Positions 1 to 25,388 of a stretch of DNA of 41,518 nucleotides are shown here, piece by piece. The stretch lies in IMG/VR virus record IMGVR_UViG_2802429248_000002; one strand, written 5' to 3'. The translations under genes and the position numbers were made by a program. The notes below the pieces were generated by a model. It made no database searches. It worked only from the letters and a program-made list of their open reading frames with translations, and had not been told where the DNA came from. Source of the stretch: a virus. Lineage: Duplodnaviria; Heunggongvirae; Uroviricota; Caudoviricetes. Positions within the stretch are counted from its first letter, which is position 1; each line of letters opens with the position of its first letter.

Positions 1-516
1 ATGAAATTTAAAAAATGTTTTCTGCCTGTGGCAATTTTAGCGTCATTCACCCTGGCAGGATGCCAGTCAAATGCTGACGACCATGCCGCCGATGTCTATC
101 AAACCGCTCAACTGAATACAAAGCAAGAAACTAAAACCGTTAATATTATCTCCATTCTTCCCGCAAAAGTTGCCGTAGATAACTCACAAAATAAACGGAA
201 TGCGCAAGCCTTTGGCGCACTTATTGGCGCTGTCGCAGGCGGCGTTATCGGCCATAACGTTGGATCTGGTAGTAACTCCGGAACAACGGCTGGTGCAGTT
301 GGTGGCGGAGCTGTAGGCGCGGCAGCGGGTACTATGGTGAATGATAAAACCTTAGTGGAAGGTGTCTCTTTAACTTATAAGGAAGGCACCAAAGTGTACA
401 CCTCCACCCAGGTGGGTAAAGAATGCCAGTTCACAACGGGTTTAGCCGTTGTTATTACCACCACTTATAACGAAACGCGTATTCAGCCAAATACAAAATG
501 TCCTGAAAAGAGCTAA
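1..516 (+). CDS. Glycine-zipper lipoprotein (YcfJ/SlyB-like)
   Basis: ATG at position 1; signal peptide ending in lipobox LAGC; Gly/Ala-rich GxxxG zipper segment (AFGALIGAVAGGVIGHNVGSG...). Probably host-encoded or a terminal moron. Confidence 0.6.
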   Translation: MKFKKCFLPVAILASFTLAGCQSNADDHAADVYQTAQLNTKQETKTVNIISILPAKVAVDNSQNKRNAQAFGALIGAVAGGVIGHNVGSGSNSGTTAGAVGGGAVGAAAGTMVNDKTLVEGVSLTYKEGTKVYTSTQVGKECQFTTGLAVVITTTYNETRIQPNTKCPEKS

Positions 517-531
517 CTATCAGGAGGACTC

Positions 532-1074
532 ATGAAGAAAGTTTTTCTTTGCGCCGCCATATTAGCTGCTGTTAGTAGCCCGGCTTTCGCCTCTTCATTA
601 CAGGATCAACTCTCTGCGGTCGCAGAAGCTGAACAGCAAGGCAAAAATGAAGAACAAAGGCAGCATGACGAATGGGTTGCGGAGCGCAACAGGGAAATCC
701 AGCAAGAGAAGCAACGGCGCGCAAACGCTCAGGCCGCAGCGAATAAAAGAGCGGCAGCAGCAGCAGCGGATAAAAAAGCTCGCCAGGATAAACGGGACGC
801 CGAATTCACTGCGGATAAAAAGCGCGATCAAAGTTATGAAGATGAGCTGCGCAACTTAGAGATTCAGAAGCAAAAACTGGCGCTGGCAAAAGAAGAAGCG
901 CGCGTTAAGCGTGAGAACGAATTTATCGATCAGGAACTGAAACACAAAGCAGCGCAAACCGATGTTGTACAATCTGAAGCTGACGCTAACAGGAATATGA
1001 CTGAAGGTGGTCGTGATTTGATGAAAAGCGTGGGTAAAGCAGAAGAGAATAAATCAGACAGTTGGTTTAATTAA
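532..1074 (+). CDS. Secreted Lys/Glu/Ala-rich coiled-coil protein of unknown function
   Basis: SD-like caggagg just upstream of ATG 532; N-terminal signal peptide (..SSPAFA/SS); highly charged low-complexity body. Confidence 0.5.
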   Translation: MKKVFLCAAILAAVSSPAFASSLQDQLSAVAEAEQQGKNEEQRQHDEWVAERNREIQQEKQRRANAQAAANKRAAAAAADKKARQDKRDAEFTADKKRDQSYEDELRNLEIQKQKLALAKEEARVKRENEFIDQELKHKAAQTDVVQSEADANRNMTEGGRDLMKSVGKAEENKSDSWFN

Positions 1075-1131
1075 TCGTCTTTCCACTACCAGGCCTGTAA
1101 TTCGTGAGGATTATGGGCTTTTTAATTGCAT

Positions 1132-1165
1132 AAAAAACCCTCCAGTGGATGAACAGAGGGTTTTG
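1132..1165. terminator. Bidirectional intrinsic terminator-like hairpin
   Basis: A-run, stem AACCCTC (1136-1142), 13-nt loop, stem GAGGGTT (1156-1162), T-run; lies between the plus-strand secreted-protein genes and the minus-strand lysis cassette. Confidence 0.5.
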
Positions 1166-1349
1166 TTACCAAAATATGCTGAAGCCTCGTACGAATAGAA
1201 AACCTCAGCATTTAGTGTTCGGGTTTATTCCCACTCAATTATTTACGGATACCATAACCAATTGAGTGATAACATTTTTCCAAAGATGAATTTTTCTCGT
1301 ACCGTTTTATATACCGTCACCGGAAATCAGTACCATGAAAAATGCCATG

Positions 1350-1832
1350 CTATCTGGTCAGGGTGTCGTACTGTTTTTCGCAGACTCTTCCGGCTTCGGC
1401 TGCCCGGTCAGCATACTCTGCCAGTTGTCTATTTCTCTCGAGAGATTTGCTGAACACGTCGGCAAGCAAAACTCCGGTGTCTGCGGCTGACGACCCAGCG
1501 CCGACAATGGCGTTATAGTGCCTGAGCTGCTCACGGATGGCAACGAGCTGTTGCTGCAACCGGCCAGCGCGAGCGGCAGCATCAAGAGCATCATTGCGCG
1601 CCTGGTCGATCCTCTGCTGCGCTTCACGTTCATTGATCGATTTCTCCTGTTCGTAGTGCTGACGAATTCTCTCATCTTCGGTTTTGCGGTCTTCTTTCGC
1701 CTGTGCATACCCAGCGTCGTACTGACGACTGCCGTGCACATTCCAGGCAACAACTCCTGATATGACCAGAACAGCAAGCACCGCCATGATAATCAACTGT
1801 TTACGGTATGCTTTTACGAATGACCAGATCAT
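1350..1832 (-). CDS. Rz-like i-spanin
   Basis: 160 aa, N-terminal TM helix then charged coiled-coil; immediately downstream of the endolysin; contains an embedded out-of-frame lipoprotein ORF. Confidence 0.6.
1358..1594 (-). CDS. Rz1-like o-spanin lipoprotein, embedded in the Rz reading frame region
   Basis: Alternative frame inside the Rz gene encodes [17 protein letters not shown]... (lipobox LAGC) followed by a Pro-rich short periplasmic segment. Start chosen at the first Met before the signal peptide. Confidence 0.5.
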   Translation of the reverse strand: MMLLMLPLALAGCSNSSLPSVSSSGTITPLSALGRQPQTPEFCLPTCSANLSREIDNWQSMLTGQPKPEESAKNSTTP

Positions 1833-2458: not shown

Positions 2459-2756
2459 GTTTAGACCTCGATATTTTGAAAATCTGAACAACGTTACCGC
2501 GTGTTTTAATAACCGCGGCAAGCATGACAGCGTTGATAATGACCTCAGATAAATCCACAGCCATTGGCGTGCGTAACCAGATTGCATAGACGACACGAAC
2601 AGGAATACTGGCCGCAGCAACAATAAGGAAATAAGCAAGCCACCCTCCCCATCTTCGATGTTGAGAGCCGTTACGCCGGAATGTGACAACGCGAATTGCT
2701 ATGCCAGTACAAATAACTGCATTGGTGATAAGCAAAAAAAACTCATGCGTTACCAT
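2448..2756 (-). CDS. Holin-like small membrane protein
   Basis: 102 aa with 2-3 hydrophobic helices; its stop overlaps the endolysin start; position typical for a holin. Confidence 0.5.
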
Positions 2757-3147
2757 CGTCTTTTCTCCCCGGAATTAAATCGCGTGGATTGTCTGAACGG
2801 TGGTAGAGCCATATACCAATACGCACAGCGACAATTGCTGACACGAATGCGCCAGCAGAGAAAACAATCCCTTTTTCAAAAGAGTCCTGCGTGATGGTAG
2901 GGATCAGGCTGGCTATGCCGATAAGAATTGATGCTGCTGGTTTGTAGAAAAGAAGTCCACAGAGAAAGCTAAGCATCGATAAGAGTACGCGACGATGAAT
3001 TGGGTACTCTACCGCAGAGGTAACAAAAATTACCGCACCAGCAAGAGCACCGAGCGCCACCTCTGGCGGAACGCCTACGATAACTGCAGCAAGAGAGCTC
3101 ACACTAAGCCATTGATTTAAAGAATCAGTAGTTAGATGGGCTGACAT
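2743..3147 (-). CDS. Multi-pass membrane protein, putative holin/antiholin or lysis accessory
   Basis: Start taken at internal ATG (MSAHL...); the longer track ORF begins with GTG. 3-4 predicted TM segments; overlaps the start of the downstream holin-like gene. Confidence 0.4.
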   Translation of the reverse strand: MSAHLTTDSLNQWLSVSSLAAVIVGVPPEVALGALAGAVIFVTSAVEYPIHRRVLLSMLSFLCGLLFYKPAASILIGIASLIPTITQDSFEKGIVFSAGAFVSAIVAVRIGIWLYHRSDNPRDLIPGRKDDGNA

Positions 3148-3376
3148 AATGAACACCGTTTATTACGCATAACAATCTCCTTACTATTGAAGATTCACAC
3201 ATAATAAACCATTTAAGGATAATAGTTACCTCAAAACGCTGTATTTCTACCTTCTACGGCAATGAAAATTTCGTTCAGAAAATGGTCTAGTGTACCTCTC
3301 AGTCACAATTAAAGAAGAAAGAAGCCGAACTTACTTCGTAATAAGCAAGCCGGCTACTAAGATTAATCCTCAATAT

Positions 3377-6133
3377 TTAGCTACTTTCAAGCATTGCAAG
3401 ACGTGATTCTATTTTTTCGATTCTTCTACGCAAATAAGCTGACTCAAGCCATAAACACTGGTCAGTACGGATACCCCACCTATTTCCAGCCTTGCAAACC
3501 AGAGTTCGCTCTTCTGTTTCGTATTCTTCTTCCATCTCAATTTCGACGCCATCCACAACTTTAGTGATCATCCTTACCGCCATCACTGGCGCGTATTTAT
3601 CATCCCATTCATCGTAACAGAGAAGGCCAAATCTGGTTCCATCAATCCCATGCGCGAGGAAAGTGTCTCTCACTTGTTGTGCTATAACACCAAAATGCCA
3701 GCGGGCACCATCTCCCTTTTCCCTGACGGCATCAAGCCAGCGAAAAGCTACAATCCTGATATCTCCCCATGCATCCAGAATTGCATCACCTTCATAACCA
3801 CGAGACATATACAAGCTGAGCTCACTTGTACTAATCGGTTCACTTTTTTCTCTACCATCTGATGTGTTTATCGAACCGTTCGCAGAATAAACCTGTGCCC
3901 ATCTAAATGATGGTGCACCAAGAGATTTGCTGTTATCAATAATTGGTGAAAAATTACCTTTAATAGCAATATTTCCAGAGTCGCCGAATATATTAATAAC
4001 TGCAGAGTCATCACCATGGTTTTTTACGCTTAAGTTTCTTGATGAAATATTTATATCTTTGTTATATCCACTAACATTAATCCATCTTTTACCATCAATG
4101 TGATACCCGTAAATATTTCCGTTTGATTGTTCGTCAGGTGACTCTCTAAGAACAATAGCATCTACTCCAGACGACCATTGTATTTTTGTATCTGTAGGCC
4201 TCCAGTTCTTTATAATGAACGAACCATCAGTAAACTCCGTTTTTATTTGTCTATTGTCTACAAATGCGTCTCTTGGTTTAAACTCACTTGTGTTAACGCT
4301 GCTCTGAAGATCAGAAGCAAAAAATCTAAGATTTCCTGTATAACCCTTAGTCTCGGTCAGGTTATACGCAATCATAATTCCATTTTCAAACTCAGATGAT
4401 GTTATTTTAACATCACGGCAATCACCAAAAATGCAATTTCCTTTATCAAATGTTGTTTGAGCTTTGAATTTATCAAACCTTAAATTACGAACAGGGAAAC
4501 CATCAACCTCTAATGCAAAGGATGCAGGAAGGCCAAAGTATTCTGATGGCTTACCTGATGTATGATCAAGAGTAGTGGCTACTGTATTCTCAAAAACAGT
4601 CCCGCTAAAATTATTACCAATTGACGGAAACCTGATTACACTTATTGTACCTTGTATTTCAGGAGAAATACCAGATAGTGTGATGTTAGCTCCATCAAAT
4701 GATGCATCTGAATACGTATATACTGATTCACTGCCAGCAATTTTAAACTGTTTAACTGAAGTTATTCTCATCGACTTTTTATGTTTAAATGTCACTGAGC
4801 TTTCAGTATTACTTACAAGATCAATCTGAGGGCTATTCCTTATCGCGATCCCTGACTGGACATAAACGTTATTAAAGTGCGTTTTTTCAGGATTTCCCTT
4901 CATTGAAAGGCTCCCGTCATTTTCTGTCAGTAGTAGTCCTTTTACCCTCCAATAGCCGACAATCTGTACGTTATCAATAACTGAATCACAGCTATCGTAT
5001 ACATGCAACCCTATATCCCAGTCATCACCCAATGAATAAGAATCAGGGTTATTGTATCCTTCAATACCATTTTTACTTACCATTATTCTCAGGTTGCGTA
5101 ACTGTGATGCCCTGTTGATACTAACAGCTACGCTCATGGCTTTTGGTGTAGCAGGAGTAACACCTACAGAATCTTCATTTGTAAACTCAGTGAACTTACA
5201 AGATATCCCTTCAACAATTTTAACTGGTCTTTCATTAGAGATGTTAAAAAAATATTTGTTTTTTTCTCCATCACCAGTAAATACAAGATGGGTTCCTTTA
5301 CTCCAACTTTTTAATAATCTTTCAGGCGCTGGTCTATATGTATCCCAATAATCAATGCCATCACCAATTAAAGACACTCCAGGAGGCACATCTATGTTCT
5401 TAGAAATCATCCATTTACCTGCAGGTATTCTAACGACACTTGCACCAGAATTTATCGCATTAATTAACCATTCAGACGCATCAACTTCAAAATTTAATGC
5501 AGCATATCTTTGCTCAAACGGAACAAAATCAAGAGCGTTAACGTTATCCCGCATCTTATCCTGGAACGTTCGGTATACTGCTCCAGAACCATACTGAATA
5601 AACCAACCAAAACCACCAACAACTCCGGCGATTGCAGCATCAACATAATTGCGCATTGATCGATTATTTACAGCATCCTGCTCAAGTGATGGATCTGCAA
5701 GGTTAGAAATTTTGTTTTGCTTTGCATCGTAATATTTTGCAAGCAAAGATGGTTTCATCAATGCACGTCTGAACCATCCAAAACATTGCTGGATCAGCAT
5801 CGTCAGATAGTCAAAGGCATCTTCATGCACCTCGGGGAAAAATTTTCCCTGATTACGAAGATCAGTCTCCTGCACCACATCAAGCACACGATCTATCGTA
5901 ATTCGCCATCCAGCAGCAAGCGGCGACGGAAGAACAACAGAACCGCCACTATAAGTGCCCGCCCCTGTTACCGTATAACCGGTATCCAGAACCAATTCTG
6001 TTACGTTCCCGTTCAGGTCAGACACCTGAACAACCAGGTCGGATTTTTTGAAAATACGGAAGGTATACGGAAATGATGTCGTAGCTCCGTTACCTGTGTA
6101 TTCGTTGTGGTCAACTTCGGTTGAGACCGTCAT
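3377..6133 (-). CDS. Tailspike protein with C-terminal intramolecular-chaperone-like domain
   Basis: 918 aa. N-terminus MTVSTEVDHNEYTGNG..TSFPYTFRIFKKSDLVV resembles the conserved particle-binding head of epsilon15/phiV10-type tailspikes (memory). Central region is Asn/Ser/Gly-rich as in beta-helix depolymerases. C-terminal ~150 aa (..TSDGREK..) resembles the self-cleaving chaperone domain (peptidase S74-like) of endosialidase-type tailspikes. Confidence 0.8.
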   Translation of the reverse strand: MTVSTEVDHNEYTGNGATTSFPYTFRIFKKSDLVVQVSDLNGNVTELVLDTGYTVTGAGTYSGGSVVLPSPLAAGWRITIDRVLDVVQETDLRNQGKFFPEVHEDAFDYLTMLIQQCFGWFRRALMKPSLLAKYYDAKQNKISNLADPSLEQDAVNNRSMRNYVDAAIAGVVGGFGWFIQYGSGAVYRTFQDKMRDNVNALDFVPFEQRYAALNFEVDASEWLINAINSGASVVRIPAGKWMISKNIDVPPGVSLIGDGIDYWDTYRPAPERLLKSWSKGTHLVFTGDGEKNKYFFNISNERPVKIVEGISCKFTEFTNEDSVGVTPATPKAMSVAVSINRASQLRNLRIMVSKNGIEGYNNPDSYSLGDDWDIGLHVYDSCDSVIDNVQIVGYWRVKGLLLTENDGSLSMKGNPEKTHFNNVYVQSGIAIRNSPQIDLVSNTESSVTFKHKKSMRITSVKQFKIAGSESVYTYSDASFDGANITLSGISPEIQGTISVIRFPSIGNNFSGTVFENTVATTLDHTSGKPSEYFGLPASFALEVDGFPVRNLRFDKFKAQTTFDKGNCIFGDCRDVKITSSEFENGIMIAYNLTETKGYTGNLRFFASDLQSSVNTSEFKPRDAFVDNRQIKTEFTDGSFIIKNWRPTDTKIQWSSGVDAIVLRESPDEQSNGNIYGYHIDGKRWINVSGYNKDINISSRNLSVKNHGDDSAVINIFGDSGNIAIKGNFSPIIDNSKSLGAPSFRWAQVYSANGSINTSDGREKSEPISTSELSLYMSRGYEGDAILDAWGDIRIVAFRWLDAVREKGDGARWHFGVIAQQVRDTFLAHGIDGTRFGLLCYDEWDDKYAPVMAVRMITKVVDGVEIEMEEEYETEERTLVCKAGNRWGIRTDQCLWLESAYLRRRIEKIESRLAMLESS

Positions 6134-6608: not shown

Positions 6609-7337
6609 CTATCGTTTCGCTTTGTGCTCATCCCAGCACGTTTTGCACCATGCCATTAAGCCGTCCGCATTTTGATTATTAGGGTAAAAGCTGGTTCGTT
6701 TTCTGCGGACATTACAAATTGGGCACCACTTCATATGGCGTGTATTCTTTGGGCCATCGAGACACCTTGCACACCATTTAGTCAATCCATCTGGATTTTT
6801 TGACGATTTCCTGAATTTTTCATATGGAAGGTTTATTCTGCATCGCAAGCACTGCTTGCTACCACTTGAAACTCTGTTAGCTGATTCTTCTTTTGGCGGC
6901 GATACAGAAGGTATTCTTGCTGGCTCTGATATTGCCTGAGGTGCTTTTTTAGATGACTGAGACGATATGTCATCACCAGGGAATCTTCCATGATATGCCG
7001 GACGCGTTGACACTCCAGGTGGAATCTCAGCTGTAAACGGCTTTGGCTGAATCAGTTGCCTCTCTTTTGCTAACTCCTGCTGTTTATAATATGTCTGGAT
7101 TACCGCACTATCATAAGCAGGAGGTGCGGAAATATTAGGCGCATTACCTCCAGTTTTTTGAAACTGAGTAGAGGTGTGTTCTATCACCTGTGTACGATTA
7201 ATCGTTATCTCCCCATCTTCGGTCTTTATCGTTTTGTTATGATTAACGACCGTACGATCAGAGATCTTAGTCTTGTTCTGGTTGATAACGTAAATAATCA
7301 CCGCAACCACACCAACAACTATCCAGAAAACTTCCAT
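6609..7337 (-). CDS. Membrane-anchored protein with tandem Cys-rich (zinc-ribbon-like) C-terminal repeats, unknown function
   Basis: 242 aa. N-terminal TM helix (EVFWIVVGVVAVIIYVI), Pro/Ser-rich linker, then two repeats of CxxC..(F/Y)..DGL..WCxxC. Operator palindrome about 20 bp upstream of the start codon. Confidence 0.55.
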   Translation of the reverse strand: MEVFWIVVGVVAVIIYVINQNKTKISDRTVVNHNKTIKTEDGEITINRTQVIEHTSTQFQKTGGNAPNISAPPAYDSAVIQTYYKQQELAKERQLIQPKPFTAEIPPGVSTRPAYHGRFPGDDISSQSSKKAPQAISEPARIPSVSPPKEESANRVSSGSKQCLRCRINLPYEKFRKSSKNPDGLTKWCARCLDGPKNTRHMKWCPICNVRRKRTSFYPNNQNADGLMAWCKTCWDEHKAKR

Positions 7338-25311: not shown

Positions 25312-25388
25312 GTGGCATTAGCTCAGTTGGACAGAGCAACCGCCTTCTAAGCGGTTGGTCGCAGGTTCGAATCCTGCATGCCACGCCA
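25312..25388 (+). tRNA. tRNA-Arg (anticodon UCU), phage-encoded
   Basis: Cloverleaf readable by eye: acceptor GTGGCAT/ATGCCAC, D-arm GCTC-AGTTGGACA-GAGC, anticodon stem ACCGC/GCGGT with loop CTTCTAA, variable TGGTC, T-arm GCAGG-TTCGAAT-CCTGC, discriminator G, encoded CCA. Confidence 0.9.

Follow-up and report, generated by a model that had tools for sequence, protein, structure and literature searches.

The left end of a phiV10-type prophage very probably lies at the 3' end of guaA in a host that is most probably Escherichia marmotae

The stretch of DNA analysed here, 41,518 nucleotides in all and referred to below as the window, begins with two plus-strand genes, yfgH and yfgI, which encode small secreted proteins or lipoproteins. 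These are followed, on the minus strand, by the lysis cassette of a phage, and at the opposite end the window closes with an integrase gene. The features are collected in Table 1. The gene calls agree with an earlier, sequence-only reading of this DNA, which had the plus-strand genes ending at 1074 and the lysis cassette ending at 1350; the first of these ends is a TAA stop and the second the stop codon of an Rz-like spanin gene on the minus strand. The gap between those two stops is 275 bp long, with a GC content of 38.5% against 48.8% for the whole window, and it was correctly described as AT-rich and as containing a bidirectional terminator, namely the stem-loop at 1134-1164 with its A6 and T4 flanks. 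ARAGORN found no tRNA in the interval 1075-1350, as the same reading had it, and none in 1-2000. The only tRNA gene in the window, a tRNA-Arg (anticodon TCT) at 25312-25388 on the plus strand, is inside the prophage, far from both of its ends, and is not the attachment site.

Table 1. Features at the two ends of the window and in the attP of phage Phi05_1387 B (L004)
Feature	Position	Strand	Basis or remark
yfgH, lipoprotein gene (glycine-zipper 2TM), host	1-516	+	Pfam Rick_17kDa_Anti; annotated yfgH in E. coli
yfgI (DUF5384), host	532-1074	+	Pfam DUF5384, 4.8e-60; TAA stop
Stem-loop 1, 13-bp stem then T run, terminator-like, after yfgI, host	1091-1120	+	terminator scan and fold
Stem-loop 2, A6/T4-flanked (bidirectional terminator of the sequence-only reading), host	1134-1164	.	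fold
Stem-loop 3 (ATGCTGA...TCAGCAT), host, E. marmotae-type spacer only	1176-1211	.	fold; identical in all E. marmotae loci
guaA 3' remnant at attL	1225-1239	-	15-bp stub; reverse complement ATTGAGTGGGAATAA = IEWE and TAA stop, GuaA C-terminus
att core (O) of attL	1227-1239	.	ATTCCCACTCAAT, 13 bp common to E. marmotae attB and phage attP
Putative 7-bp overlap (crossover) region, CCCACTC	1230-1236	.	read from the attP sequence
P' arm (phage DNA), core to Rz stop codon	1240-1349	.	identical to Phi05_1387 B attP, near-identical to phiV10
ATACCGTCAC, candidate arm-type integrase site, P' arm	1311-1320	+	same position in phiV10, Phi05_1387 B and epsilon15
Rz-like spanin, last lysis-cassette gene, first phage gene at left	1350-1832	-	Pfam DUF2514, 1.4e-40; homologous to phiV10p30 and epsilon15_p06
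P4-like tyrosine integrase, last phage gene at right	40262-41518	-	Pfam Arm-DNA-bind_3, Phage_int_M, Phage_integrase
ATACCGTCAC copy in int	40997-41006	-	exact match
ATACCGTCAC copy in int	41250-41259	+	exact match
ATACCGTCAC copy in int	41340-41349	+	exact match
P-arm terminator hairpin	L004 7558-7590		24/27 identical to the E. coli yfgI/guaA terminator

The first 1500 bases of the window have a match, at 90-95% identity, in 5419 of 5426 complete E. coli genomes, and the genes matched are yfgH and yfgI. In K-12, which has no phage at this position, the order is pdeF, yfgG, yfgH, yfgI and then the convergent guaA. When the YfgI protein of the window was looked up by exact sequence, ten loci (L014-L023) were retrieved. 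Six of these (L014-L018 and L021) are empty, with yfgI and, about 150 bp further on, the 3' end of a guaA of 525 aa; three (L019, L020 and L022) are lysogens with a lysis cassette as in the window and different tailspikes; and one (L023, E. marmotae CP099344) has a different island at the site. Window positions 1-1239 align with all ten loci over their full length at 99.7-99.9% identity, compared with 90.4% for K-12. Four of the ten (CP072689, CP099351, CP099344 and CP173213) are called Escherichia marmotae in papers and, going by identity to genomes so named, the host is most probably that species. Among species-representative genomes, an exact 37-mer of the host spacer (window 1190-1226 region) had no match; the YfgI protein had no 100% match there and no E. 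marmotae record was returned, the best matches being Escherichia sp. E1V33 (96%) and E. whittamii (95%). Escherichia yfgI/guaA DNA was also encountered as two tiny, low-coverage contigs, of 336 bp in Brevibacterium sp. UMB10442 (L040) and 274 bp in Fredinandcohnia humi (L041); in these unrelated Gram-positive assemblies it is most likely contamination.

By their sequence matches, yfgH and yfgI are core Escherichia genes and belong to the host. The sequence-only reading had allowed that they could equally be terminal morons of the phage, which would put the true host junction to the left of the window. Both products are indeed small secreted proteins or lipoproteins, both genes sit beside the lysis cassette, and the records of phage TL-2011b list the two as phage genes. 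Against this, they adjoin guaA in the six prophage-free E. marmotae loci and in K-12 and are present in nearly all the E. coli genomes counted above, while no phage record other than TL-2011b, which also holds the host genes pdeF and yfgG, has a match to the left of 1227. The empty-site alleles refute the moron assignment, and we regard its likelihood as practically nil; yfgH and yfgI are treated as host genes in what follows.

Comparison with an empty-site allele had been proposed as the way to settle the junction, and this was done by aligning the window with three E. marmotae empty sites, K-12, the attP of Phi05_1387 B, and three attR regions from lysogens whose integrase is identical to the one in the window. 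From 1060 to 1239 the window is the same, base for base, as the E. marmotae empty-site alleles L014-L016, and the two diverge after 1239. They agree through ...GGGTTTATTCCCACTCAAT, which ends at 1239; the empty sites then continue as AGTAGCTGG..., which is guaA, and the window as TATTTACGGATACC.... The latter continuation is identical to attP, which to the left of its core reads ...GTTAATCATTCCCACTCAAT, and from 1227 onwards the window is identical to the attP of Phi05_1387 B (L004). Position 1226 is a host-specific T (C in the phage) and position 1240 a phage-specific T (A in the host), so strand exchange would have occurred inside the 13 bases between them, 1227-1239. Read on the minus strand, those 13 bases spell the four C-terminal guaA codons (IEWE) plus one base, the first, of the stop codon, and the 15-bp guaA stub of which they are part extends into the full 525-aa gene in the empty sites.

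With high confidence, we place the left end of the prophage at an attL at the 3' end of guaA, with host DNA up to 1226, the shared core at 1227-1239 and phage DNA from 1240; on this alignment of empty site and attP, the end would be the published site of Uetakevirus phages of the phiV10/epsilon15 type. The earlier expectation of a junction somewhere between 1075 and 1350 was sound, and the empty-site comparison narrows it to these 13 bases. The attB is at the guaA 3' end, beside yfgI, and comprises the last four codons and the stop, in L014-L018, L021 and K-12. Three other E. marmotae lysogens (L019, L020 and L022), whose tailspikes differ, have the same junction at attL; a single junction in four E. 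marmotae lysogens with different tailspikes implies, at the level of sequence, repeated integration. In complete E. coli genomes, a yfgI-Rz arrangement like that in the window was found in 369 of the 5426.

For phage vB_EcoP_ZX5, attP and attB have been described as the same 17-bp sequence, attgagtgggaatgatt, at the guaA 3' end, and attB, attL and attR were determined by PCR and Sanger sequencing in E. coli (PMC9782041). The attP of phiV10 and of epsilon15 is given there as the same attgagtgggaatgatt sequence, with citation of Perry 2009 and Kropinski 2007, and the TL-2011b prophage has been located in guaA (PMC3293862). The reverse complement of attgagtgggaatgatt, AATCATTCCCACTCAAT, aligns to window positions 1223-1239 with 14 of 17 bases identical, of which 13 are contiguous at 1227-1239, and the statement that no att core is recognisable in the interval has to be withdrawn. 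The window reads GTTTATTCCCACTCAAT at 1223-1239, as does E. marmotae attB. All three mismatches to AATCATTCCCACTCAAT are on the host side and all are native E. marmotae attB bases, so that the Uetakevirus core AATCATTCCCACTCAAT is common to attP and attB here at 14 of 17 positions.

Judged by these sequences, the site is an already known one, seen here in a less-studied host and with a 13-bp identity block. It resembles the phiV10, epsilon15 and vB_EcoP_ZX5 site in the position and sequence of the core, the integrase, the int-attP-Rz layout, the conserved blocks of the P and P' arms, the ATACCGTCAC sites and the regeneration of guaA. It differs in having E. marmotae as host, in an identity between attB and attP of 13 bp (15 with one mismatch) rather than 17, and in the guaA stop codon of the host, a TAA that would turn into a phage-supplied TGA at attR. 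Compared with K-12, the host spacer between yfgI and guaA is 150 bp here and 92 bp there. The core is in a protein-coding gene; with a tRNA-targeting P4-like integrase it would overlap a tRNA or tmRNA gene at the 3' end.

Matches in the phage collection all begin at 1227, with the sole exception of TL-2011b. The best is Phi05_1387 B at 99.8%, and the others include phiV10, epsilon15 and SPN1S. In these four phages int and Rz are neighbours, about 317 bp apart, with attP between them, whereas the window has them at its two ends, the outcome that integration through a site between them would give. The integrase is P4-like and close to those of phiV10 (99% identity) and epsilon15 (87%). Its ORF was correctly reported as lying at the far right edge, its start codon side coinciding with the last base of the window (41518). 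The 13-mer core ATTCCCACTCAAT occurs once in the 41,518 nucleotides, so attR is outside, which is where the other junction had been supposed to be.

Eight lysogens with an identical integrase (L006-L013) have the order int, P arm, core, guaA, and in these guaA is still 525 aa long and its end is 192 bp from the start of int. They are not E. marmotae, their guaA 3' sequence being E. coli-like or of another non-marmotae type. By analogy with them, attR in the present genome would be about 190 bp past the window, and the core would be duplicated. The predicted right junction consists of about 190 bp of P arm, with the terminator AAAAACCC[C/T]CTGTAAAAACAGAGGGTT and ATACCGTCAC, then ...TTAATCATTCCCACTCAAT, then AGTAGCTGGCGGCTTACC, which is E. 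marmotae guaA.

The fact that only 14 of the 17 published core bases are present, together with the position of attR outside the window, could also be read as the sign of a decayed, immobile prophage remnant with an eroded left end, in which the core match is merely a relic of guaA. The three mismatches, however, all fall on the host side, where a normal E. marmotae attB has the same bases. The P' arm does not differ from that of Phi05_1387 B, whose record has int, attP and Rz contiguous as in an excised phage. In addition the integrase ORF is full length and almost the same as phiV10 Int, and the junction is common to four E. marmotae lysogens with different tailspikes. A decayed remnant is on this evidence quite improbable, and integration at the guaA core is the reading retained.

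In attP, the heptamer CCCACTC is found between the imperfect inverted repeats TTAATCATT and AATTATTTA, which are complementary at 7 of 9 positions. Core-type sites around a 7-bp overlap are the usual layout, and from the attP sequence we infer that strand exchange takes place within CCCACTC. The P' arm to its right has blocks that are conserved in epsilon15 and SPN1S. Part of the core, CACTCAAT (1232-1239), recurs in the P' arm, inverted and 21 bp further right, as ATTGAGTG (1261-1268), and this inverted pair is conserved in phiV10 and partly so in SPN1S and epsilon15.

The 10-mer ATACCGTCAC is present in four exact copies in the window, where 0.04 would be expected; three of these fall within the 5' part of int and the fourth in the P' arm. 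The P arm of Phi05_1387 B, phiV10 and epsilon15 has another two, one of them with a mismatch. The epsilon15 record (NC_004775) annotates four copies of ATACCGTCAC as 'protein_bind: integrase' and also lists IHF sites and a rho-independent terminator. The copies at 41250 and 41340 and the P' copy at 1311-1320 correspond to the annotated epsilon15 integrase sites. We take the repeats to be putative arm-type Int sites. The 41250 and 41340 copies also encode a repeated peptide, RDGI, which makes their role as DNA sites uncertain; the copies within int may be Int sites, as predicted, possibly with a part in autoregulation, or they may reflect a repeat in the protein. No clear match to the IHF consensus was seen when the P' arm was checked by hand.

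Set beside a lambda-type attP, the phage site has in common an integrase with an arm-binding domain, a 10-mer repeated in both arms, imperfect inverted repeats around a 7-bp centre and, going by the annotation of the epsilon15 record, IHF sites. It is unlike the lambda type in that the integrase belongs to the P4-like subfamily and the target is the 3' end of a protein gene rather than an intergenic sequence; the binding sites here are all predicted ones.

The resistance island GIsul2 and its relatives are reported to insert at GAGTGGGA, at the guaA 3' end (PMC9376610). The reverse complement of that target, TCCCACTC, is window 1229-1236, so the same eight bases are used, likewise by a tyrosine integrase and with guaA left intact. 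The two elements are otherwise unlike: GIsul2 has a backbone of alpA, rep, trb and resG with CR2-sul2, whereas the window holds a complete Uetakevirus-type prophage, and the target site alone is shared. E. marmotae CP099344 (L023) has a non-phage island at exactly this core, and its sequence departs from that of the host right after CCCACTC. Both this point of divergence and the GIsul2 target GAGTGGGA fit CCCACTC as the crossover region. The island, which is of a non-Uetakevirus kind, occupies L023 6696-12543 with the junction ATTCCCACTC followed by TATTATC. Its first genes encode a 1365-aa HTH_3 protein, a PIN_12 protein and an rve transposase, and its arm opens with AATCGAGTGATA, which is similar to AATTGAGTGATA of the phage P' arm.

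The three hairpins between yfgI and the core are host features. The first, at 1091-1120, is present in the E. marmotae empty sites and partly absent from K-12, and it was the only one reported by the terminator scan; the second, with an E. marmotae loop too long for the scan rules, was seen by folding. This second hairpin has a homologue in K-12 and other Escherichia. It is between the convergent yfgI and guaA in the empty site and downstream of the phage lysis genes in the lysogen. Compared with the 92-bp spacer of K-12 (L001 6867-6958), the E. marmotae spacer at 1075-1226 has an additional hairpin at 1091-1120, three inserted bases by which the stem of the shared terminator is weakened, and a 60-bp stretch with the third hairpin, 1176-1211.

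A terminator is annotated in the P arm in the phiV10 and epsilon15 records. Its hairpin is identical at 24 of 27 positions to the E. coli yfgI/guaA intergenic terminator (L001 ~6905-6935), a score reached by 0 of 500 shuffles, which suggests an origin of the phage arm in host DNA that was captured from downstream of guaA. The hairpin is a second block of similarity between host and phage, and recombination might accordingly have been sought at 1134-1164 instead of the guaA end. The host DNA nevertheless runs on to the core, as 1165-1226 matches the E. marmotae empty site at every base and does not resemble the P arm, and the junction verified by PCR in the published case is the guaA core (PMC9782041). 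Recombination at the hairpin is for these reasons extremely unlikely. Because 1165-1226 is of the host type, the likeness of the two hairpins does not shift the junction from the guaA core. A MAFFT alignment had paired parts of the spacer 1166-1226 with the P arm (GAATAG...GC.T.AGT), as though the spacer were leftover P arm; this was rejected, as local alignment past the hairpin did not score above shuffles and the spacer is present in all the empty sites.

In the mechanism that we propose, the P4-like tyrosine integrase would recombine the attP core with the identical bases of the last four guaA codons, and integration would make Rz the leftmost gene of the prophage and int the rightmost. The attP supplies TCA to the left of the core, ie a TGA stop codon. 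With IEWE encoded in the core and the stop coming from the phage, guaA would be rebuilt at full length at attR; its length is 525 aa whether or not a prophage is present. The minus strand carries all three of guaA, int and Rz. In the free phage, the P-arm terminator would be expected to end the lysis transcript. In the lysogen the same terminator, between guaA and int, would block read-through from guaBA into int, and the host hairpins at 1134-1211, now downstream of Rz, would terminate the lysis cassette in its place. The host-specific base at 1226 and the phage-specific base at 1240 are both kept at attL in four independent lysogens, which amounts to a natural mapping of the exchange region. 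A broader proposal, that a single 7-8 bp crossover site at the guaA end is common to the phage and island integrase family and that the P-arm terminator is a captured host copy shielding int, is put forward tentatively, and we would give it somewhat less than an even chance.

The TL-2011b record (NC_019445 / JQ011317; L005 1-3425) lists a host pdeF fragment, yfgG, yfgH and yfgI as phage genes, and its yfgH is named DNA methyltransferase in RefSeq. On the present sequence comparison, the record describes a prophage plus host flank, with the guaA core at L005 3522 as the true end. Within the prophage of the window, at 2743-6133, no O-antigen modification gene separates the holin-region gene from the gene for the 918-aa tailspike; elsewhere this region has an O-acetyltransferase, in phiV10 and TL-2011b, or O-antigen conversion genes, in epsilon15. 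The 918-aa tailspike gene has 99.8% DNA identity to that of Phi05_1387 B and is unlike the tailspikes of the other E. marmotae lysogens.

For annotation, the left boundary of the prophage would be set at 1227-1239 and the right one at about 190-210 bp past the window, with yfgH and yfgI assigned to the host, and the public TL-2011b record can be flagged as one in which a host flank is annotated as phage genes. The current understanding of site-specific recombination is unchanged by these results. What they indicate for this family is that phiV10-type phages would use the guaA site in E. marmotae too, despite the shorter identity block.
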